Of a stretch of 64,000 bases of DNA, positions 3,502-46,951 are shown piece by piece. Every line of letters starts with the position of its first letter. Position 1 is the first letter of the stretch. Location: contig CAJFHE010000001.1 of the NCBI GenBank assembly GCA_904378095.1, forward strand, positions 12,018-76,017, in the 5' to 3' direction. The notes under the pieces are model-generated. The model ran no database searches. It worked only from the letters and a program-made list of their open reading frames with translations, and was not told the origin of the DNA. This DNA is from an uncultured Clostridia bacterium. GTDB taxonomy: Bacteria > Bacillota > Clostridia > TANB77 > CAG-508. The translations under genes were made by a program, and so were the position numbers.

Positions 3502-4242
3502 TTACATCAATTCTCTTATAACTTCGCCTGCTATTAAAAGACCTGCGACAGAAGGAACGAAACTTATACTTGCAGGGATTTTAGCATCTGTTTTAATAGG
3601 CTCTTCTGTAGAATAAAGAACCTTCAAATGATTTATATTAAGCCTTCGTAATTCTTTTCGAATAACCTTAGCGAGTGGACATACAGATGTCTTATTTATA
3701 TCTGTAATTTCAAATCTAGATGCATCTAATTTATTTCCAGTGCCCATGCACGAGATTATCTTAATATCTTTATCATGACAATATTTAATAATTTCCAATT
3801 TAGAGCTAACTGTGTCAATAGCATCAATTACATAATCAATTTTAAACTTTGTTCCGCTATTCTCAATTGTTGTAGCATTATTTAAAATTATATTATTAGC
3901 AATTGCAAATATATTTTCTATATTATCTTTATTTACAATTTCTTTGATTGAGGCAACATTTATTTGTGGATTTATTTTTAGAATTCTAGCCTTTTCTGCG
4001 TCCACTTTAGCCATTCCAACAGTCTCAGTATCCGCAATAAGCTGCCTGTTAATATTAGTAATATCAACAACATCTTTGTCAACTATAGTTATATTGCCGA
4101 TACCAACTCTAACCAGACCTTCAACAACATATGAGCCTACTCCACCTAGTCCAAAAACTATAACATTAGAATTCTTTAATTTATTTATGCTCTCTTTTCC
4201 GATGAGCATTTCCTCTCTATTAAGCCAATTTATATTATCCAT
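3502..4242 (-). CDS. tcdA: ThiF/MoeB-family tRNA threonylcarbamoyladenosine dehydratase (TcdA-like)
   Basis: 246 aa with the Rossmann motif VFGLGGVGSY and TcdA/CsdL-like length and layout. Confidence 0.75.
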   Translation of the reverse strand: MDNINWLNREEMLIGKESINKLKNSNVIVFGLGGVGSYVVEGLVRVGIGNITIVDKDVVDITNINRQLIADTETVGMAKVDAEKARILKINPQINVASIKEIVNKDNIENIFAIANNIILNNATTIENSGTKFKIDYVIDAIDTVSSKLEIIKYCHDKDIKIISCMGTGNKLDASRFEITDINKTSVCPLAKVIRKELRRLNINHLKVLYSTEEPIKTDAKIPASISFVPSVAGLLIAGEVIRELM

Positions 4243-4421
4243 TTTGTTTACATCCTTTCATGTGTATTATTATAGCATATAAAGATTTCCTTGCGCAATA
4301 TAGGGACACTTCTAAATGTGAAAGATTTTGCACATTAGGGACAGTCCTAAGCAATATGACAAAAATATTCGATATTAAATTCACTTCAAATTTGAGGATA
4401 ATTTTTTTATCTTTATATCTA

Positions 4422-4517
4422 CAAAAATGTGATAAATATTACAGAAATACTTACAAAAGTGTGATATATTATGCAAAAATATTTGCAAAAATGTGATTTT
4501 AGATGTATAATTAGTAT
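4422..4517 (+). promoter_or_regulatory. three CAAAA(A/G)TGTGAT boxes at exact 32-bp spacing upstream of DUF4143 ATPase 1
   Basis: TGTGAT starts at 4428, 4460 and 4492. The middle box overlaps a -10-like TGATATATT. Confidence 0.6.
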
Positions 4518-5851: not shown

Positions 5852-5906
5852 TATAATTGAAAAACTTGTATATTTGGGACACTCCTTGAGGTAAAAAAAT
5901 GAAAAT

Positions 5907-5989
5907 ATTACAAAATTATTACAGCAATATTAAAAATATGTTACAAATATGCCTATAGGGTTGAAAAAAGCAGTCTGATAGTATAGAAT
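5907..5989 (+). promoter_or_regulatory. promoter of locus A: three (A/G)TTACA boxes, then TTGAAA-17-TAGAAT
   Basis: Boxes at 5907, 5918 and 5940 (offsets 0, +11, +33). -35 at 5961-5966 and -10 at 5984-5989. Homologous to 45722-45804. Confidence 0.55.
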
Positions 5990-6105
5990 AACATCGAGAT
6001 AGTTGTAGGAAAACTACAATATATGAAAAGTGGATTTAATATATATAATGTCACTTTGCAAATATGAAATGAGCAACAAAAAAATAATAAATAAAAGGAG
6101 AAAAA

Positions 6106-6252
6106 ATGCAACACAAAGAAACTGCTGAAACCCTTGAGACTGTACACACACACACACACACACACAAGTATTTCTATACAAGTGTGTCAATTTGCTATGT
6201 TTACAATACAAAAGAGGAACAAACAATACCTATGCGGAAGATAGCCGAGTAG
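6106..6252 (+). other. 48-codon leader ORF containing (CA)11; encodes an HTHTHTH dipeptide repeat
   Basis: AAGGAG RBS and ATG at 6106. The stop lies in AGTAGGCTTT, the homologous position to the locus B leader ORF stop. Confidence 0.3.
6144..6166. repeat. dinucleotide microsatellite (AC)11+A
   Basis: Uninterrupted acacac... run counted directly. Confidence 0.95.
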
Positions 6253-6290
6253 GCTTTGTTTGCGTTGCACAAAATAATATAAAGGAAATA

Positions 6291-6352
6291 ATAGGCTATA
6301 TATTTGAAACAAGAAAGTTAGAAAAATGTTTCTAGGAATAGCCTATATTTTT
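6291..6352 (+). terminator. hairpin plus T-run after the locus A leader ORF (terminator/attenuator-like)
   Basis: ATAGGCTATA/TATAGCCTAT outer stem, GAAAC/GTTTC inner stem, then TTTTT. Confidence 0.5.
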
Positions 6353-6525
6353 ATAACAAAAACATGCACTTAAAAATAAATGCAAAAAACAAGCAAGCGA
6401 GGTGAGTCAAAGTGAATATAGAAGAACAAATTGAAGTAAAAAGTATAAAATTAGAAAATAAGGACAAATATGCATAAAAAGTGCAAAATATGTGAATAAT
6501 GTTAAAAAATGGAGGAGGAGTAAAA

Positions 6526-6621
6526 GTGAAAGAAAAACTAAAAAGTAATCAAGCTATCACATTAATTGCATTAGTAATAACATTAGACACTATTGGTATT
6601 ATAGCACAAATGGAAATATGA
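6526..6621 (+). pseudogene. truncated remnant of a protein with a pilin-like hydrophobic N-terminus
   Basis: GGAGGAGGAG RBS and GTG start. VKEKLKSNQAITLIALVITL... stops after 31 codons. Confidence 0.4.
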
Positions 6622-38762: not shown

Positions 38763-38889
38763 CATAAAATTTTGTTCAAAAAAATGGCAAAATAAAAAAC
38801 AAAAAAAATCACATAATAATATTGAAAAAAATATAGGTTCCATTAAACCATTTTTTCAATTTAAAAATTAATGGAGAAAGGTGATTTTT

Positions 38890-39993
38890 ATGACAAAGAA
38901 GATATTAAGTGTTATAGCAATTGTTGCTTTAATATTTTGTACTTTACAATTTAATGTTTATGCAGCTTCAATTCCATTAAATTCTGTAACAGTTGATGTA
39001 AGCAAAGAAAAAATAGCGCCAGGTGAGGAAGTTACTGTAACAATAAATTTTGGTACAGAGCTTGGAGCATATACATTTGATGTTGCATATGACAACAACA
39101 TTTTTGATTACGTAAGCTCAGAAGGAGGAACGCCAAATGATGATGGTACACGTGTAAGAGTAACATTCTATGACAGTACAGGAGGAACTAACCCACGCTC
39201 TAATATGACAGTTACTTTTAAATCGAAAGACAGCATAGAAGCAACAAATCCAACAGATTTTTCTGTTACAGCAGAAGGTTTGGCAAATAACGATGCATCA
39301 CAGGAATATGATGACATTACTACGCCTATCAAAAAAGATGTAACAGTAGAGCCAAATTATGTGGACTATACAATTAGTTTGAATTATTCTGGAGATGTAA
39401 TTGTAGATGAAGAAAAAGCTATGGAGTTAATTACAGCATCTAGCATGGGAAGAAATTATGACCATGTTAAACTAACAGCAGAAGTTACTAAAAAGCCATC
39501 TGATGCAGCAACTGTTAAATTATTAGCTACAGAAAGAACAAGACAAGAAATTGATTTAATTCAAGATGGATGGGGCGAGCCAGATGGATATGCATTAGGT
39601 GGAAAAGACGTAGAGCAAGTACTAGACATTAGAGGTACATTTAGCGAAATTGGTGCATACACAATAAAAATAAGCTTACTTGATAAAGATAATTCTGATA
39701 GCGTAATTGCAACAAAAGACTTCAATATTAATGTAACAGAAGTTTCATCTGGAAATACTGGAGATGAAGGAAATAATGAAATTCCAGGAGGAGTTACAGA
39801 TAATGAAGAGAACAACAATGTACCTGGAGCATCAGACGAAAACAATCAAAATGGAAATGTAGAAAATGAGGAAGAATTACCAGAAAATCTACCCAAAACT
39901 GGTATGACCCAATATGTATATATAATTACAGCAATTGCTGTTTTGGGAGCAGTATATATATCTTTAAAAAGTGAAAAATCAAAACAAAAATAA
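38890..39993 (+). CDS. LPXTG-anchored surface protein with an N-terminal cohesin-like domain
   Basis: Signal peptide, cohesin-like VTVDVSKEKIAPGEEVTVTINFG...FDVAYD, and C-terminal LPKTG + TM + KSEKSKQK sorting signal. Confidence 0.7.
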   Translation: MTKKILSVIAIVALIFCTLQFNVYAASIPLNSVTVDVSKEKIAPGEEVTVTINFGTELGAYTFDVAYDNNIFDYVSSEGGTPNDDGTRVRVTFYDSTGGTNPRSNMTVTFKSKDSIEATNPTDFSVTAEGLANNDASQEYDDITTPIKKDVTVEPNYVDYTISLNYSGDVIVDEEKAMELITASSMGRNYDHVKLTAEVTKKPSDAATVKLLATERTRQEIDLIQDGWGEPDGYALGGKDVEQVLDIRGTFSEIGAYTIKISLLDKDNSDSVIATKDFNINVTEVSSGNTGDEGNNEIPGGVTDNEENNNVPGASDENNQNGNVENEEELPENLPKTGMTQYVYIITAIAVLGAVYISLKSEKSKQK

Positions 39994-40000
39994 TCTATAA

Positions 40001-40030
40001 AAAGGCGATGAAATAAAAAGCATCGCCTTT
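40001..40030 (+). terminator. intrinsic terminator
   Basis: AAAGGCGATG/CATCGCCTTT stem. Confidence 0.6.
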
Positions 40031-40085
40031 ATGACTATAATTATATGGATTACATATGAGTACACAGAAAGGAAAAAACTAAAAC

Positions 40086-40724
40086 ATGTTTAGAAAATTT
40101 TTAAAATTGCTAATTATTCTTGCAATATCTATTTTGATTGGAAACATGGTATATGGAATGTATCAAGAATTTGAATTAAGCAATGGACCAAGTGTAGTAG
40201 CAGAGCCAAATGACATTTACTTAAATTCAGAAATAGAATTAAATGAGTTGGCAGACAATTTAACTAATAAAACAGCAGAAAACGAAGGGGAGAAATTAAA
40301 TAGAGCATTTGAAAAAATAGATGAAGAGTATAAAGGGTATAAAGTTTCTGCCAAGCTTATAATACCTAAAATAGAGCTAAACACATATGTCCTAGAAAAA
40401 TATGGCACAGACACAATGGAATTATGTCCCACTAAATATTTTGGAGCAGAGCCAAACGAAGCAGGCAACTTTTGCATAGCAGCTCACAACTATAACAAAG
40501 AAAATATGTTTAATCATATTATAGAATTAGAAAAAGGGGACACAATAATACTAATAGATAATAAAAATGGCGAGGTAGAGTACGAGGTATATGATGTGTA
40601 CAAAGTAAAGCCAAATGAAACTGAGCCGCTGTCGCAAAAAACTGAAGGCAGAACAGAGCTTACACTAATTACGTGCAGCGATTATTCAAGTAAGCGAATT
40701 ATTGTGAAAGCTAGAAAAGTTTAG
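40086..40724 (+). CDS. sortase (class not assigned)
   Basis: N-terminal TM, catalytic His region (CIAAHNY), TLITC Cys motif, C-terminal Arg. Confidence 0.8.
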   Translation: MFRKFLKLLIILAISILIGNMVYGMYQEFELSNGPSVVAEPNDIYLNSEIELNELADNLTNKTAENEGEKLNRAFEKIDEEYKGYKVSAKLIIPKIELNTYVLEKYGTDTMELCPTKYFGAEPNEAGNFCIAAHNYNKENMFNHIIELEKGDTIILIDNKNGEVEYEVYDVYKVKPNETEPLSQKTEGRTELTLITCSDYSSKRIIVKARKV

Positions 40725-40739
40725 AAGGAGGTTAGTATT

Positions 40740-43031
40740 TTGAAGAAGAAGATAGTAGTAAGTTTGGGCATAATAGCAACATTTGCTATCATCTTTATAG
40801 TGATATTTACAATATTCAATTCCAATAAAACGGAAAATGCCATAGAGGGAACAAGATTGTCAAATGGCATGCTTCTTTCTAATGCATTTCCAGATATTTA
40901 TCAGCCATATATAGATGAGCTAAAAAAGAAGTATCCAAATTGGGACTTTAAGGCGCTATACACTAACTTAGACTGGAAATATGTAATAGATAATGAGAAC
41001 GTTTTTGGAAAGAATTTAGTACCAAAGTCATATAGTGACAGTTGGAAAAATACTAAACAAGGTGAATACAATGTGGAAGTAGATAGTGGCTGGGTAGATT
41101 CGTCAAGGGCAGCTGTTGAGTTTGCCATGGACCCACGAAATTTCCTAAACTATGTACGTGTGTTTCAATTTGAAGAATTGTCGTATAATTCCAAGACAAA
41201 TACTATTTCCAGTATAGAAAAGATTTTGTATGGTACAGAATTTTACAATAGAATTGTAGAATACAAGAATTCTAGTGGTACAAACATTGTAACAGACAAA
41301 AAATATTCAGATTTGATTCTTTCAGCAGCTAAAACCTCTGGTGTAAGTAGTTTCCATCTTGCTTCAAGAATAAAGCAAGAGGTGGGACCATTTTTGTCCC
41401 ATAGCTCAATTAGCGGAACAGTCTCAGGCTATGAAGGGTTGTACAATTTCTATAACATTGGTGCAACAAGCTCATCAGAGACAATGGGCGCTATAATAAA
41501 TGGGCTTAAATATGCTAAAGATGGAAAAGGTGCTTCTACTGCAATTAAAAATAAGTACCTGATTCCATGGAATACAAAGGAAAGAGCAATTACAGGTGGG
41601 GCAATTTTCATAGGCTCAAGCTATATTAACCAAGGACAAAATTCAATATATCTGCAAAAATTCCATGTTTATGATACTTCAAGTGATGAGTTATTTTGGC
41701 ATCAATATATGACAAATGTGCTTGCACCATATAGTGAGTCAAAATTAATATATAACGGATATTCAAATAGCGGATTGCTAGACTCTTCGATGTCCTTTGT
41801 AATTCCTGTTTATGAAAATATGCCAGATTTGCCTTGTACAAGTCCAGCAATTTCTGCAAGTGATTTTTTGGCAGACAATACCAAGGTATATGCAAATGTG
41901 GAAACAAGCCTAAATGTAAGAACAGGGCCAGGAACTTCTTACGAAACTCTTACAAGCGTGCCAGGAGGAACAACAATGACAAGAATTGCAAAAGGAAAGC
42001 AAAAGGGAGAGTTATGGGATAGAGTGAAATTACAAAACGGTTTAGTGGGATACGTTTTCCAGACATATGTGGAAGAGGTACCTGATGTAGAGGTAGAAAA
42101 AATAGAGCTATCTTTGGACAAAAGCACGATAAATAAAGGAGAAAGAATTAAAATAAAAGCTAAAGTTAGCCCTGATGATGCAGTGGAGAAAAGTTTGAAA
42201 TTCAGCTCAAACAATACAAGTGTTGCAACTGTGAGCTCAGATGGCTATATTTTAGGAGTGGGATCTGGAACAGCTAAAATAACGGCTACTGCTACCAATG
42301 GTGTAAAAAGTGAAATTAGTATAAAGGTATATAGCCCGGTTACAGATTTAGTGGTAAGTACTGAGCATGTTGTACTTCAAGTTGAAGAAAAATTTAAGCT
42401 AAATGTTAGCGTATTGCCAGATGATGCGGATAATAAAAAAGTCACTTTTAAATCGGAAAATGACGGGATAGTAAATGTAGATACAGATGGTGTTTTGACT
42501 GGTATTTCAGAAGGAGACACGAAAGTAAGCATCATGTCTGAGGATAGTGGCATTTCAAAGACAGTCGCAGTAACAGTAATTAGAAAATTAGCAGAGGGAG
42601 AGATAGTATTCGATGAGAGTTTAAATGTGGATGCAAACGAGATAACAGGTTTGGAAAATAAAAATAATACGGTAGACAGCATTTTGCAGAAAATAAAGAC
42701 AAATTATACTGTAGAAATATACAACTCAGCTGGCAAAAAAATAGAAGGTAGTGCTTTAGTTGGAACTGGAAGCACGATAAGAATATTGTACAGCAGCAAT
42801 AATACAATAGTTATGGAATATAATGTAATAATGTATGGAGATGTAAATGGAGATGGCAAAATAAACAGTATAGATTTGCTAGTATTACAAAGACATATCC
42901 TAGAAACGCAGAAGCTTGAAGGAGTATTTGTTAAAGCAGGAAATGTAAGAAAGAATGGCAAAAATCCAAGCTCTGTGGATTGTTTGTTAATACAAAGACA
43001 TATACTTGGATTGCAAAGTATAGAGCAATAA
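40740..43031 (+). CDS. multidomain peptidoglycan hydrolase: GH73 glucosaminidase, SH3b, 2x Big_2, dockerin
   Basis: TM/signal anchor, glucosaminidase region (HLASRIKQEVG...YNFYNIGA), SH3b (NVRTGPGTSY), two Big_2 repeats, and C-terminal DVNGDGKINSIDLLVLQRHIL plus a degenerate second dockerin segment. Confidence 0.75.
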   Translation: MKKKIVVSLGIIATFAIIFIVIFTIFNSNKTENAIEGTRLSNGMLLSNAFPDIYQPYIDELKKKYPNWDFKALYTNLDWKYVIDNENVFGKNLVPKSYSDSWKNTKQGEYNVEVDSGWVDSSRAAVEFAMDPRNFLNYVRVFQFEELSYNSKTNTISSIEKILYGTEFYNRIVEYKNSSGTNIVTDKKYSDLILSAAKTSGVSSFHLASRIKQEVGPFLSHSSISGTVSGYEGLYNFYNIGATSSSETMGAIINGLKYAKDGKGASTAIKNKYLIPWNTKERAITGGAIFIGSSYINQGQNSIYLQKFHVYDTSSDELFWHQYMTNVLAPYSESKLIYNGYSNSGLLDSSMSFVIPVYENMPDLPCTSPAISASDFLADNTKVYANVETSLNVRTGPGTSYETLTSVPGGTTMTRIAKGKQKGELWDRVKLQNGLVGYVFQTYVEEVPDVEVEKIELSLDKSTINKGERIKIKAKVSPDDAVEKSLKFSSNNTSVATVSSDGYILGVGSGTAKITATATNGVKSEISIKVYSPVTDLVVSTEHVVLQVEEKFKLNVSVLPDDADNKKVTFKSENDGIVNVDTDGVLTGISEGDTKVSIMSEDSGISKTVAVTVIRKLAEGEIVFDESLNVDANEITGLENKNNTVDSILQKIKTNYTVEIYNSAGKKIEGSALVGTGSTIRILYSSNNTIVMEYNVIMYGDVNGDGKINSIDLLVLQRHILETQKLEGVFVKAGNVRKNGKNPSSVDCLLIQRHILGLQSIEQ

Positions 43032-43055
43032 TCTAAAAAGATAAGGGAGAGTGCA

Positions 43056-44369
43056 ATGAAGAAAAAGTGTATAATTCTTGGTAAATTAATTGTATTTCAA
43101 ATAGTTGTAGTAGCACTTCTGTGCTTGCTAAGTGTGAAAGGTTTTGCAGTAACAGAAATTAATTTAACAGCAAATAAAGATAATGTTGATGTAGGTGAAG
43201 AATTTAGCATAACTGTGAATGAAACTAGTTCAAATATTGCAGCATATACTATATGGATATACTTTGATAGTCAAATGGTAGAATGTGTATCAGCTGCTGA
43301 TAATCTTAATGTGGTAGAAAATAAAGCTATTTACACATGGTTTTCTGAAAATGGCGTCAATGAAGATTTAGATGAATTAGTGCAAATAGAATTTAAAGCA
43401 AAACAAGATGGAGTGGCTTCATTTGCAGCAACTGGTGAATTCTATAACCAAAATGGGGAGCAAATAGATGTAAAATATAATCAGGTAGAAGTAGAAATAG
43501 GCAACTATGTTAATCAATATGCTACAACACAGAATGGTAAAAATGATAGCGAGCAGGCAGAAAAAACAGCAAACAGCAGTAGTGCTAAGTTGGAAATAAT
43601 GAGATTAAATCAGGAAGGAGTGAATCCAGACTTTAATCCTGATATACATGAATATTATTTGATAGTTAATGAAGATACAAAAAAGCTTGATATAACTGCA
43701 GTGCCTGAAAATAGAGAGGCAGAAGTAAAAATAACAGGAAATGATAATTTGAAAAACGGATTAAACAAAATAGAAATCTCGGTTACATCAAAAGATAAAA
43801 CCAGCACAGAAGAATATATTATAAACGTAACTAAAACAGACGATGCAGAAGCGGCAAATGCAGATTTGGAAAAATTAGCAGTAGAGAATTATACGCTTTC
43901 ACCTGATTTTCAGAGTACAGTAACAAATTATACGGTAGAAGTATCAAATGAAGACGAGAATTTGAATATATTAGCCATAGCACAAAAAGAAAATGCAAAA
44001 GTAAAAATAAGTGGAAATCAAAATCTAAAAATAGGACAAAATGAAATTGTAATTACTGTGACAGCACCAAATGGAGCCACAGAAAAAAATTACATTATCA
44101 ATGCATATAGAAGGGGCGAAGCGGAGGAGAACGCATTTAAGCAAGAGCAGCAAAATGCAATAGAGCAAGCAAATGAGATTATGGAGCAAATGGATGAAAA
44201 CGGAAATGGTAATACGCAAGAGACAGGTGAAAAAAGCGAAAACAATGGCATCCAAGATGAAGCAAGGAACGTAGAAGATATGATTTTTATGATTGCTGGC
44301 ATAGTACTGTCAATAATAGTGCTGGGAATTGTAGTTATTAGAATAAGGTCGGGCAAAATCAAAAACTAG
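43056..44369 (+). CDS. membrane-anchored surface protein: cohesin-like domain, 2x cadherin-like beta-sandwich, C-terminal TM
   Basis: Signal peptide, cohesin-like NLTANKDNVDVGEEFSITVN...IWIYFD, two L..L.V....L.P.F....Y.Y repeats and a C-terminal TM helix. Confidence 0.6.
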   Translation: MKKKCIILGKLIVFQIVVVALLCLLSVKGFAVTEINLTANKDNVDVGEEFSITVNETSSNIAAYTIWIYFDSQMVECVSAADNLNVVENKAIYTWFSENGVNEDLDELVQIEFKAKQDGVASFAATGEFYNQNGEQIDVKYNQVEVEIGNYVNQYATTQNGKNDSEQAEKTANSSSAKLEIMRLNQEGVNPDFNPDIHEYYLIVNEDTKKLDITAVPENREAEVKITGNDNLKNGLNKIEISVTSKDKTSTEEYIINVTKTDDAEAANADLEKLAVENYTLSPDFQSTVTNYTVEVSNEDENLNILAIAQKENAKVKISGNQNLKIGQNEIVITVTAPNGATEKNYIINAYRRGEAEENAFKQEQQNAIEQANEIMEQMDENGNGNTQETGEKSENNGIQDEARNVEDMIFMIAGIVLSIIVLGIVVIRIRSGKIKN

Positions 44370-44466: not shown

Positions 44467-45408
44467 ATGGAAAAGGAAGTTTTAATTTTTGGACATAAGA
44501 ATCCAGATACAGATTCTATTACATCTTCAATGGTAATGGAGAACTTGGAGAGAGAATTAGGTAATAAAAATGCAAAAGCAGTTAGAACAGGTGATGTTAA
44601 TAAAGAAACACAGTTCGTTTTAAATTATCTTGATATGGAAGCTCCAGAGCTAATTGGAAATATTAATGATAATCAAGAGGTTATATTAGTAGACCATAAC
44701 GATGCTGCACAATCAGCAGATAATATAGAGCATGCAAAGGTTTTAAAAGTAATAGACCACCATGCTGTAAACTTTACAATTTCAAGCCCTTTATACTATA
44801 GAGCAGAGCCAGTTGGATGTACAGCAACTGTATTGTATGAATTATATAATGAAAAAAGAATAGAAATAACTAATAAAATTGCAACTCTAATGCTTAGCGC
44901 TATTGCTTCTGATACATTGGTATTAAAATCACCAACAACAACAGAAGTTGATAAAAATGCTGTTAGAATGTTAGAGAAAATAGCAGGATTAGACCTTACT
45001 AAATATGGTGTAGATATGTTAAAAGCAGGAACAGACATAAGCGATTTTACACCAGAGCAAGTAATAAATATAGATTCAAAATTATTTGAGCAATCAAATA
45101 AAAAATTCAGAATAGCACAAGTAAACACAGCTGACCTAGACTCTATATTTAAAAATCAATCATATTTCGAGCAAGCAATAAATAACGATATACAAAAAGA
45201 AAACTTAGACTTTTATGTATTTGCTGCAACAGATATAATCAATTCAAATTCAAAAATTATATCACTTGGAAATGATGCACCAGTTGTAGAAAAAGCATTT
45301 GGCGTATCTGTAGATAATCATACAGCAATGCTTGAAAATGTAGTGTCAAGAAAAAAACAAATGCTACCACCAATTTTGGATGCATTGAACAATAATATAA
45401 ATTTATAA
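44467..45408 (+). CDS. ppaC: manganese-dependent inorganic pyrophosphatase (family II, DHH)
   Basis: FGH.NPDTDSI, VDHH and DHHA2-type C-terminus. TTGACT ... TGcTATAAT promoter upstream. Confidence 0.9.
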   Translation: MEKEVLIFGHKNPDTDSITSSMVMENLERELGNKNAKAVRTGDVNKETQFVLNYLDMEAPELIGNINDNQEVILVDHNDAAQSADNIEHAKVLKVIDHHAVNFTISSPLYYRAEPVGCTATVLYELYNEKRIEITNKIATLMLSAIASDTLVLKSPTTTEVDKNAVRMLEKIAGLDLTKYGVDMLKAGTDISDFTPEQVINIDSKLFEQSNKKFRIAQVNTADLDSIFKNQSYFEQAINNDIQKENLDFYVFAATDIINSNSKIISLGNDAPVVEKAFGVSVDNHTAMLENVVSRKKQMLPPILDALNNNINL

Positions 45409-45563: not shown

Positions 45564-45646
45564 GCCGATGTGGCGGAACTGGCAGACGCACCAGACTCAA
45601 AATCTGGCGGGAAACCATGTGGGTTCGAGTCCCACCATCGGTACCA
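45564..45646 (+). tRNA. tRNA-Leu (anticodon CAA)
   Basis: Cloverleaf folded by hand: acceptor GCCGATG/CATCGGT, anticodon stem CCAGA/TCTGG with loop CTCAAAA, long variable arm, T-arm GTGGG-TTCGAGT-CCCAC, encoded CCA. Confidence 0.85.
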
Positions 45647-45721
45647 ATGGAAAAACAACTATAAATAGCTTGTATCTGAGAATACAGGCTGTTTTTATGC
45701 TCATGTGAGTGACAAACGAAT

Positions 45722-45804
45722 ATTACAAAAATGTTACAGAAATATTAAAAGAATATTACAAATGAGCTAAAAGGATTGAAAATAATATACTAAAAGGATA
45801 TAAT
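45722..45804 (+). promoter_or_regulatory. promoter of locus B: three (A/G)TTACA boxes, then TTGAAA-17-TATAAT
   Basis: Boxes at 45722, 45733 and 45755 (0, +11, +33). -35 at 45776-45781 and -10 at 45799-45804. Same architecture as locus A. Confidence 0.6.
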
Positions 45805-45873
45805 TGATTTGTACTTATGGTTAAATAAAATGCAGAAGCAAATAAAGTAAAAAAAGGAAGAAAGTGGGAAAAC

Positions 45874-45954
45874 ATGAAAAAAACGAAAACCTTGGAAAGC
45901 ACTGATATACTAGAGAGAGAGAGAGAGAGAGAGAGCTACATCCTAGAAAAGTAG
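45874..45954 (+). other. 26-codon leader ORF containing (AG)12; encodes an ERERERE repeat
   Basis: ATG at 45874. The stop lies in AAGTAGGCTTT, homologous to the locus A leader stop. Confidence 0.25.
45912..45935. repeat. dinucleotide microsatellite (AG)12
   Basis: Uninterrupted agagag... run counted directly. Confidence 0.95.
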
Positions 45955-46078
45955 GCTTTATTTGTGATGCAAAAACTAACTGCAATGCAAGCATAAAAAA
46001 CAGTAAAAAATTAGCAAAAAAAGAATATATAATAAAAAAATGGGTAGACTATGGAAAGCAAGAAAAAGCGAGAAATAG

Positions 46079-46951
46079 TCTGCCTTTTTATATTCTATAG
46101 AAGCAAGAAAAAACACACCAGTATCAGATGACCAAGGAAATACAGTAGTAATACCAGGAGGATTCCATTTAGATGAAGATAGTGGAACGAGTGTAGAAGA
46201 AGGAATAGTAATAGAAGATGGTAGTGGTAACCAATTTGTATGGATACCAACAGGAACATACAATGTAACCGAGGCAGTGGATAATGATGGAACAAAAGAT
46301 GGAAAACTAACAAATAATTTAAGTAGAAGAACATTTACAGACACAGGAGCAACAGAGGTAAGTGGAGATAATGTAATTGAAGATTACTTTTATGGAGAAG
46401 GAGATAGTCGTTCAGTAGCATATTCACAAATAGGAGCATTTAAAGACAGTGTAAGTAAAAATGGTGGATTCTATATTGGTAGATACGAATTAGGTACAGG
46501 AAATGTAGTAAAAGCGGGAGTAGCTCCATATACAAATATAACAAGAGATACAGCAAAAAGTCAGATAGAGGCGATGTATAGTGGAAATGGTTATGTAACA
46601 AGTGAGTTAATAAGTAGTTATGCATGGGATACAGCATTAAACTTCATATGTCAAACAAATATTGCAGGATATACATTAGCTAGAACAACAAGTAGTAGTT
46701 ACGGTAATATATATACAGGAAGTAGGCAAAATACAGGAGCATATGAAGCAGATAATTATAGTAATATCCATGATTTACTAGGTAATTGTAGAGAATGGAC
46801 TACAGAGTACTTTAGTCGTAGCTACGGTCCTTGCGTGTCTATGGGTGGCAATTACAGCACCGGCCTCTACTACGCAGCCGTTCGTAGCAACAGCAGTACG
46901 AGCTATTCCAACGATGACATCTCAGCCCGTGCCCAGCTTTATTTAAAGTAG
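46079..46951 (+). pseudogene. FGE-sulfatase / C-type-lectin-fold protein lacking an in-frame N-terminus, with a DGR-VR-like 3' end
   Basis: The frame is open from 46079 with no ATG (first start-like codon is GTG 46277). GGFYIGRYE and HDLLGNCREWTTE are SUMF1/FGE-like motifs. The last 126 nt are compositionally aberrant. Confidence 0.65.

Follow-up and report, generated by a model that had tools for sequence, protein, structure and literature searches.

Why does an uninterrupted (AG)12 tract lie within a short open reading frame (ORF) just upstream of a gene with an FGE/C-type-lectin (CLec) fold, and does the length of this tract decide whether the gene is expressed? We studied this question for a stretch of 64 kb from an uncultured Clostridia bacterium (contig CAJFHE010000001.1, assembly GCA_904378095.1), which we refer to as the window and which has a G+C content of 30.7%. 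An initial annotation of the window had proposed that changes in tract length could toggle the reading frame, or ribosome traffic, into the lectin-like gene, and had considered partial decay of the gene to be equally possible. Our reading, to which we assign a probability of roughly 0.65, is that the locus (locus B) is a copy of a 5' switch module of repeat, leader and terminator that stands ahead of many genes of a protein family, and that the gene belonging to this copy has been truncated. A second, paralogous copy of the module is found in the same window (locus A). The positions of all features are collected in Table 1.

The window contains only two dinucleotide tracts of at least nine units, namely the (AG)12 of locus B and the (AC)11 of locus A. 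At locus B the tract is a non-triplet repeat within a leader ORF that has its own ATG and is located downstream of the promoter. Leaders homologous to this one were found at 15 or more loci. Start, tract and stop of this ORF lie exactly where they had been annotated. As can be read from the sequence, the number of units n modulo 3 sets the frame of the leader and there are two short frames and one long frame. Relative to the end of the tract, translation stops at +16 for n = 12 and at +8 for n = 10 or 13, while a hairpin begins at +106, that is 106 nucleotides (nt) after the tract. The short frames thus end ∼90 nt ahead of the hairpin. For n = 11 or 14 the stop is found at +162, which is 12 nt beyond the hairpin, and at n = 11 the leader ORF comprises 74 amino acids (aa). 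This is the frame that the loss of one AG unit had been predicted to open, and it does run to the TAG at 46098–46100. The FGE frame opens at 46079, directly after a TAG at 46076–46078, and has no ATG, again as annotated. No value of n links the leader ATG to this frame.

We then compared tract lengths among ten contigs that come from different samples and share the 224-aa ORF of locus B unchanged. The tract has 11 units in two of them (L001 and L002) and 12 units in L003–L007, in L009 and in the window, and the flanks are identical; the contigs L008 and L010 terminate within the tract. Apart from the tract the interval between tRNA and gene is the same in all ten contigs, with the exceptions of L004, where we found long-read homopolymer errors, and L010, which carries four single nucleotide polymorphisms. 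A 74-aa gene was called in L001 and L002, and the exact product of the (AG)11 leader (P0135) occurs on 7 contigs. Close variants of the leader (at least 86% identical) read ILE(RE)n and match 5, 8, 11 and 14 units. The allele counts across contigs carry a bias, as the look-ups required an exact protein and similar contigs were collapsed, and given the 7 contigs for P0135 we did not count 11 further contigs similar to L001 as (AG)11. A fixed tract length, which the initial annotation had named as an outcome that would speak against its proposal, is not what we found. The (AG) tract is a slipped-strand hypermutable site at which n has been changed by replication slippage, as had been suspected: it has 11 or 12 units between identical flanks, and 5, 8, 11 or 14 in the close variants.

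The second element of the module is the hairpin behind the leader. The hairpin proper (46042–46085) is present in the minimum free energy fold of the region with z = −3.2. For the covariation analysis we aligned 13 sequences (alignment A2) and folded them with RNAalifold, which resulted in a helix of 12 bp with compensatory changes in 11 of the 12 pairs. Overall 96.2% of the alignment cells are paired compared to 73.9% in shuffled alignments (0 of 500 shuffles reached the observed value) and 38–56% in slid controls. The T-run behind the helix is invariant in A2. Across the loci the stems have a length of 9–17 bp with energies between −13 and −29 kcal/mol; their sequences differ and the pairing is kept. 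Consensus terminator scans, which cover loops of 3–8 nt only and require at least three G-C pairs, found none of the module hairpins, and we located them with a purpose-written script before testing them by covariation. The pairing and the T-run point to an intrinsic terminator that lies behind the repeat and would act prematurely.

To see how general this arrangement is we fetched related loci amounting to 778 kb. They contain 17 (AG) or (AC) tracts of at least nine units, and every one of these is found in the same leader context. The tracts are (AG)10–14 or (AC)15, stem from metagenome-assembled genomes (MAGs) of different species, and each of them is preceded by a short start of the form M...(L)E(T/I/A)V and lies 350–800 bp upstream of an FGE-type domain. 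Two architectures can be distinguished. In the first one the leader is a separate upstream ORF (uORF). We observed this type in both window loci, in L015, L017, L033, L035, L041, L042, L046 and L080, and in several copies in L067 (three) and L077 (two). Here the main gene has its own ribosome-binding site (RBS) and ATG 150–400 nt downstream of the tract; at intact loci the two follow 60–400 nt downstream. Two of the frames stop 1–84 nt past the tract and ahead of the hairpin, and the long frame of 53–96 codons crosses the hairpin, behind which TTTT(T)(G/A)T follows, with a stop that lies inside or at most 51 nt beyond the hairpin. In each of the 12 uORF instances that we tested a single frame is open between tract and hairpin (probability by chance 0.0005–0.17 for each), and L033 and L041 show the same frame logic. 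In the second, fused architecture the tract is situated inside a full-length ORF. L040, L081 and L088 are of this type and would be in frame at 12 units, with 11, 13 and 11 units as assembled, and in L072 the ORF is in frame at (AG)5, giving MNKSSKNVEVLERELHFKQIKEKRGITLIAL... By its layout the fused type is a case of classical switching within the coding sequence. As a separate observation, in L067 (at 3146, 5183 and 8179) and in L077 (at 336 and 6828) several leader-repeat modules follow one another over a few kb of one genome. Nearly all of these have exactly 11 units, which suggests that the leaders of L067 and L077 were recently duplicated or homogenised.

Locus A (5900–6620) is located between a gene for a DUF4143 AAA-ATPase and ruvA. 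The TTACA-box block of locus B recurs here at 5905–5935 (0 matches expected by chance), and ATATTACAAAAnTnTTACAGnAATATTAAAA is the promoter-block string common to the sites at 5905 and 45720. The box GTAGGCTTTATTTGTGATGCAAAAA has a second copy at 6249–6273 (0 expected by chance) with the shared consensus GTAGGCTTTrTTTGyGwTGCAmAAA. The repeat occupies the same position within the leader ORF at both loci. As two different dinucleotides hold the same place in paralogous leaders, we take the tract to be a feature of the module that is under selection. In different samples the tract of locus A has 4, 5, 10, 11, 14 or 15 AC units; its long frame (n = 10 or 13) stops at 6333–6335. Locus A is a relic that is more decayed than locus B, and in L096 the entire module is deleted. 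Just past the leader terminator of locus A we also noticed a small ORF ending in ENKD(K/R)Y(A/S), which has counterparts at the same place in L023 (∼1491–1541), L017 (∼3581–3607) and L042 (5533–5610). An ORF of this type is absent from locus B; it could encode a second leader peptide.

How would such a module work? The conserved promoter with its phased TTACA boxes would drive a leader RNA that encodes the short ORF with (AG)n. In the short frames (n = 10, 12 or 13) the terminator would form and transcription would end (OFF), which is the predicted state of the (AG)12 allele in the window. In the long frame (n = 5, 8, 11 or 14) the ribosome would cover both arms and block the hairpin so that the polymerase could read through (ON). 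The assignment of OFF and ON is made by analogy, as the experiments on pil1 of Streptococcus gallolyticus show the same architecture. Of the two routes that had been proposed for the tract, ribosome traffic is close to this best-supported mechanism, whereas toggling the frame into the FGE gene has to be abandoned: no n joins the two, and the break at 46079–46100 is repaired in none of the ten contigs of locus B.

The reason why the FGE frame starts without an ATG can be seen from a comparison with intact genes. The homology to proteins of the FGE family begins at ∼46115, which corresponds to residue 103–153 of the intact homologues. The gene at locus B is without RBS, ATG, anchor and linker as well as without ∼100–150 N-terminal residues. 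A sister locus is found between glmS and rpsF (L104–L109). In L105 the sequence is 95% identical to window positions 45824–46114 and the hairpin is identical, and past the leader there is a spacer of ∼60 nt followed by AGGAGG, an ATG and MKRTKGITLIALVIT, the beginning of an intact gene of >843 aa. As the homology to L105 ends at ∼46110 and the family homology starts at 46115, a deletion has joined the tail of the terminator to the middle of an FGE-type gene. The gene start and the first 100–150 codons of locus B were removed by this deletion. L105, L046, L035 and L067 all have a structural gene with an RBS and a start codon of its own, and locus B has none.

Partial decay, one of the two options of the initial annotation, therefore describes the FGE/CLec gene well. 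The break around 46079–46100, for which it had invoked an additional frameshift, is not a second frameshift within a once-continuous ORF, since the long frame of the homologues ends at or just after the conserved hairpin. Nor is the leader the broken N-terminus of the FGE gene, as the main gene of the homologues has an RBS and an ATG of its own. The switch of locus B still mutates but most likely no longer controls a functional protein, and this copy is probably defunct. We also considered programmed −1 frameshifting at CCUUUUUAU as a link between the long leader frame and the FGE frame. We rejected it, as this sequence does not form a canonical slippery heptamer and the tail of the terminator accounts for the U-run. 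Similarly we discarded P0001 (84% identical) as an orthologue because it sits at a different locus as a split gene. For the sister locus two further observations were made. In L104, L105 and L108 the leader, the terminator and the spacer are identical and the sequences then diverge at ∼+210 to +232 nt after the tract, which suggests an exchange of cassettes behind a conserved leader in the glmS–rpsF strains. In L104 and L107 a GITLVALVV segment is not in frame with the first ATG, near A-runs.

Table 1. Features of locus B, its surroundings and locus A (window positions).
Feature	Positions	Strand	Details
tRNA-Leu (anticodon CAA)	45564–45646	+	ARAGORN; Rfam tRNA 57.9 bits; upstream neighbour, outside the module
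tRNA-Leu terminator	45667–45696	+	arms AGCTTGTAT / ATACAGGCT, then GTTTTT; read from the letters
TTACA-box block	45720–45762	+	ATTACA 45722, GTTACA 45733, ATTACA 45755; 11-nt phase
Putative sigma-A-type promoter	45776–45804	+	TTGAAA 45776–45781, 17-nt spacer, TATAAT 45799–45804; 11/12 consensus positions
Leader ORF as assembled, (AG)12	45874–45954	+	ATG 45874, 26 aa, MKKTKTLESTDILERERERESYILEK, stop 45952–45954; short frame
(AG)12 tract	45912–45935		exact span, inside leader ORF
Conserved box GTAGGCTTTATTTGTGATGCAAAAA	45951–45975	+	includes the TAG that ends the (AG)12 frame
Long-frame extension of leader ORF	45936–46100	+	n = 5, 8, 11 or 14; crosses hairpin; stop TAG 46098–46100
Intrinsic-terminator-like hairpin, locus B	46042–46094	+	arms GGGTAGACTAT / ATAGTCTGCCT, 22-nt loop, −17.8 kcal/mol, then TTTTATATT
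5'-truncated FGE/C-type-lectin-fold gene	46079–46951	+	290 open codons; first start-type codon GTG 46277
Deletion junction	46108–46114		end of homology to intact sister locus L105, ∼46110
Hypervariable C-terminal region, like the variable region (VR) of diversity-generating retroelements (DGRs)	46808–46948	+	GC ∼0.5 vs 0.31 in the window
Locus A putative promoter	5905–5989	+	TTACA-box block and TTGAAA, 17-nt spacer, TAGAAT
Locus A leader ORF	6106–6252	+	48 aa as assembled; (AC)11 at 6144–6165
Locus A hairpin	6291–6355	+	arms ATAGGCTAT / ATAGCCTAT, −13.8 kcal/mol, then ATTTTTATA
Locus A small ORF	6412–6477	+	ends ENKDKYA
Locus A pilin-like N-terminal stump	6499–6621	+	40 aa, ...QAITLIALVIT...

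Several points weigh against reading locus B as a copy of an attenuation switch. The activity of the promoter, termination at 46086–46094 and translation-dependent read-through are all predictions. The coupling between ribosome and RNA polymerase is reported to be weak in some Firmicutes; pil1 shows that the mechanism can work. In several of the hairpins the loops are long (22–38 nt), which is atypical for efficient intrinsic terminators and may reduce their efficiency. The FGE frame of locus B, open over 290 codons, may also have retained some residual function. Finally, all 15 uORF consensus sequences (the 12 tested instances together with L033, L035 and L041; the window is included) are in a short frame and all three fused-type MAG sequences are out of frame. 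The long frame was only seen in population variants, namely in L001, L002 and L104–L109 for the leader of locus B and in L099 for locus A. This prevalence fits a contingency family that is mostly OFF, but selection against the long frame could account for it as well.

We considered three other explanations. As both copies in the window are decayed, locus A is even deleted in L096 and all MAG consensus sequences are in short frames, the module could be a neutral relic whose frame has no effect on expression, or control could be exerted via Rho-type polarity or mRNA stability only. However, the single open frame across the hairpin, the covariation and the purity of the tract are kept across species at loci with intact genes, and an identical design has been proven in S. 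gallolyticus, which makes this explanation unlikely. We regard it as rather less probable still that the basic 74-aa product of the long frame is a functional small protein with phase-variable expression and that the hairpin merely lies within its coding region. The long frame is indeed open in many lineages, close variants of the peptide are conserved and there is a weak common motif, (K/R)xGF(I/V)CxAKxN. Yet the peptides of different lineages can barely be aligned while the hairpin pairs via compensatory changes, the long-frame stop tracks the position of the hairpin and the T-run is invariant; furthermore the leader peptide had no match in Pfam, and a search of 5.8 billion proteins with the leader product returned 10 close relatives only. 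The least credible explanation is direct translational switching, in which tract length decides whether the leader ATG is in frame with an FGE/CLec ORF that was once continuous, and 46079–46100 is a later frameshift: L040, L081, L088 and L072 do have the tract inside a full-length ORF, but the conserved terminator is where the long frame of locus B ends, as is also the case at loci whose main gene starts from an RBS and ATG of its own, the sister leader with 95% identity precedes a separate gene, the N-terminal 100–150 family residues are absent and not frameshifted, no contig repairs the break and CCUUUUUAU offers no canonical −1 slippery heptamer.

For the switch module it is also of interest which proteins it would control. 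The translation of the FGE frame has >7000 homologues with a typical length of 380–440 aa. They come from MAGs of uncultured gut Clostridia, in which a single genome holds many paralogues; the idea of a phage family was dropped, as viral contigs gave two distant relatives only. Family members begin with a short N-terminal leader and a hydrophobic G-ITLIALVITIIILIILA segment; a linker, which in some cases contains FN3 repeats, leads to the FGE/C-type-lectin-like domain, and their C-terminal ∼50 residues differ sharply between otherwise similar members. With the FGE frame as query, the Pfam model FGE-sulfatase reached 18.9 bits, which is under its cutoff of 23.3, and the sequence search against PDB gave no significant match. 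The AlphaFold2 model of the FGE frame has a pLDDT of 81.7, and the top matches in Foldseek were Mtd (E = 4.5e-4), PvdO, CarF, FGE and TvpA with TM-scores of only 0.3–0.46. The hydrophobic segment resembles that of pilins and is absent from the gene in the window. The N-termini of the homologues read G-ITLIALVIT without Glu5 and do not agree with the class III signal of type IV pilins (G followed by FTLxE, Glu at +5). They had no match to the pilin models of Pfam and NCBIfam either, and a family member is named 'pseudopilin PulG' in one source only.

The variable C-terminus has an unusual composition. Across the last 50 codons the share of C at third positions rises from 7% to 46% and that of A drops from 52% to 8%, with hypervariable NNC/NNT codons placed among conserved scaffold codons. 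The modest fold matches to Mtd and TvpA, the variability of the C-terminal ∼50 residues and the strong depletion of A may point to a resemblance to the variable proteins of DGRs. Unlike in DGR systems, neither a template repeat nor a reverse transcriptase turned up when we examined the 64-kb window and flanks of ±6 kb at 79 loci, and the blastn comparison of the variable region with the window and all fetched loci only returned other variable regions. P0123, a natural variant of the truncated gene, differs from P0002 (window 46277–46951) by few substitutions that are concentrated in the C-terminal ∼60 residues and by two insertions in the same part. Adenine mutagenesis does not produce indels, and the pattern of P0123, in contrast to what is expected for a DGR, looks more like block replacement by recombination. 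We therefore describe the region as no more than similar to a DGR target.

Upstream of the leader the annotated order of tRNA-Leu, terminator, three boxes and TTGAAA-17-TATAAT was recovered at the same positions. An adjoining tRNA is absent in all 17 related loci examined, so we regard the adjacency as incidental and dropped the idea of a tRNA-linked island. The tRNA-Leu terminator at 45667–45696 was not picked up by the consensus terminator scan. The Rfam scan of the whole window detected two tRNAs only and no match to a leader or riboswitch family. The TTACA boxes show an 11-nt period over 45719–45762 (Tandem Repeats Finder). This phasing suggests an array for protein binding, and the boxes are probably sites of a regulator or of the UP type. 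The block was also found in 10 of the fetched loci (L017, L023, L028, L031, L032, L035, L046, L052, L062 and L065). The −35 (TTGAAAA) and the −10 elements are kept across homologous loci, whereas the hexamer match by itself is not above chance with 6 sites in the window compared to 8.4 expected from shuffles.

The promoter with TTACA boxes is not restricted to the switch module. In L031, L028, L032, L065 and L062 it stands directly ahead of family genes that have neither leader nor repeat, and in L052 it precedes one apparently unrelated gene. The promoter block may thus define a regulon with its own regulator. Strings that resemble the boxes (TACAAAAATG) also occur within a 32-nt tandem repeat at 4420–4497 of the window, which comprises 2.4 copies of TACAAAAATGTGATAAATAATACAAAAATACT and lies upstream of the AAA-ATPase gene. 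Just upstream of locus B there is a cluster of surface-protein genes (38881–44369) encoding a cohesin-like protein, a sortase, a Big_2/SH3/dockerin protein and a protein with cadherin-like domains, followed by a gene similar to family II (DHH/DHHA2) pyrophosphatases (44467–45408).

The closest known system is the pil1 operon of S. gallolyticus. There, GCAGA repeats in a leader-peptide gene alter the length of the peptide (Danne et al. 2014, PMC3894217). Short peptides stop 39 bp before a premature terminator and expression is low, whereas longer peptides stop within or after the terminator, so that the ribosome prevents the hairpin and expression is high (PMC3894217). The order of elements in pil1 and pil3 is the same as here, with a promoter, an RBS-bearing leader ORF that contains a non-triplet repeat, a stem-loop terminator and a structural gene with its own RBS (PMC3894217). 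Locus B shows five structural features of this class and is missing the downstream gene with its own RBS. The repeat number varies in both systems, which for our module follows from the 11 or 12 units of locus B, the variants with n = 5, 8, 11 or 14 and the 4–15 units of locus A. Both systems are found in gut-associated Firmicutes ahead of a gene of the surface appendage or adhesin type, with repeat numbers that differ among strains. The distance between the short-frame stop and the hairpin is also comparable, with 39 bp in pil1 and 41–90 nt in the two window loci.

There are clear differences as well. The systems share no sequence homology, and (AG) or (AC) repeats of 4–15 units (10–15 in assembled leaders) take the place of ∼22 units of GCAGA. 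Long frames account for one third of the repeat numbers here, whereas in pil1 both the addition and the deletion of a repeat lengthen the peptide, which we read as two thirds. The pil1 type concerns one or two operons; our module is multicopy and precedes a large family in many uncultured species. The proteins under control are sortase pili in pil1 and FGE/CLec proteins with a pilin-like anchor here, and locus B has lost its gene.

A second group of systems carries the repeat inside the coding sequence, which in the opa genes of Neisseria is the classical form of repeat phase variation. The CT repeats of Helicobacter pylori oipA are an example of dinucleotide-repeat phase variation within a coding sequence (PMC10564699). 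As in oipA and opa, a hypermutable short repeat is located near the 5' end, n modulo 3 decides and the genes form multigene surface families that are mostly OFF. At locus B and in most of its relatives, however, the repeat is located in a separate upstream ORF and not in the coding sequence of the surface protein, so that it cannot shift the frame of the main gene; only L040, L081, L088 and L072 appear to work in the manner of oipA and opa.

Two further analogues are more distant than pil1 and pil3. In cwpV of Clostridioides difficile, from the same class of organisms, a phase-variable 5' leader also decides on the formation of a terminator ahead of a surface-protein gene, but the variation is reportedly a site-specific DNA inversion by a recombinase, with neither repeat slippage nor leader translation. 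In the pyrBI attenuator of Escherichia coli the leader ORF runs through the hairpin and a closely following ribosome blocks it, depending on UTP-controlled pausing. Control of pyrBI is physiological, whereas the switch of locus B would be genetic and stochastic.

We found no description of the system in the searchable literature, and a phase-variation review from 2025 does not include leader-peptide repeat attenuation, which has so far been demonstrated for the pili of S. gallolyticus only. Judging from the loci compared here, the same design occurs independently with dinucleotide repeats ahead of many family genes in uncultured Clostridia of the human and animal gut. This suggests that Gram-positive bacteria use the mechanism as a general means of bet-hedging in the expression of surface proteins. 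It would also provide a rule by which ON and OFF states can be read from metagenomes by sequence only, using the repeat number modulo 3 and the position of the stop relative to the hairpin, and would explain why 'frameshifted' or orphan ORFs of 20–75 aa recur in these MAGs and why their contigs break at (AG)n. For the window itself the practical message is more modest as both copies are decayed relics. For the family as a whole we tentatively suggest, although we would not bet on it, a portable expression site that stacks an ON/OFF switch (mostly OFF), the exchange of cassettes and DGR-like hypervariation of the ligand-binding C-terminus on surface proteins with a lectin fold. If true, this would be a first sign that repeat attenuation via leader peptides is common beyond S. 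gallolyticus and not a peculiarity of that species, and also a commensal Gram-positive counterpart of contingency systems of the opa and pilE type.

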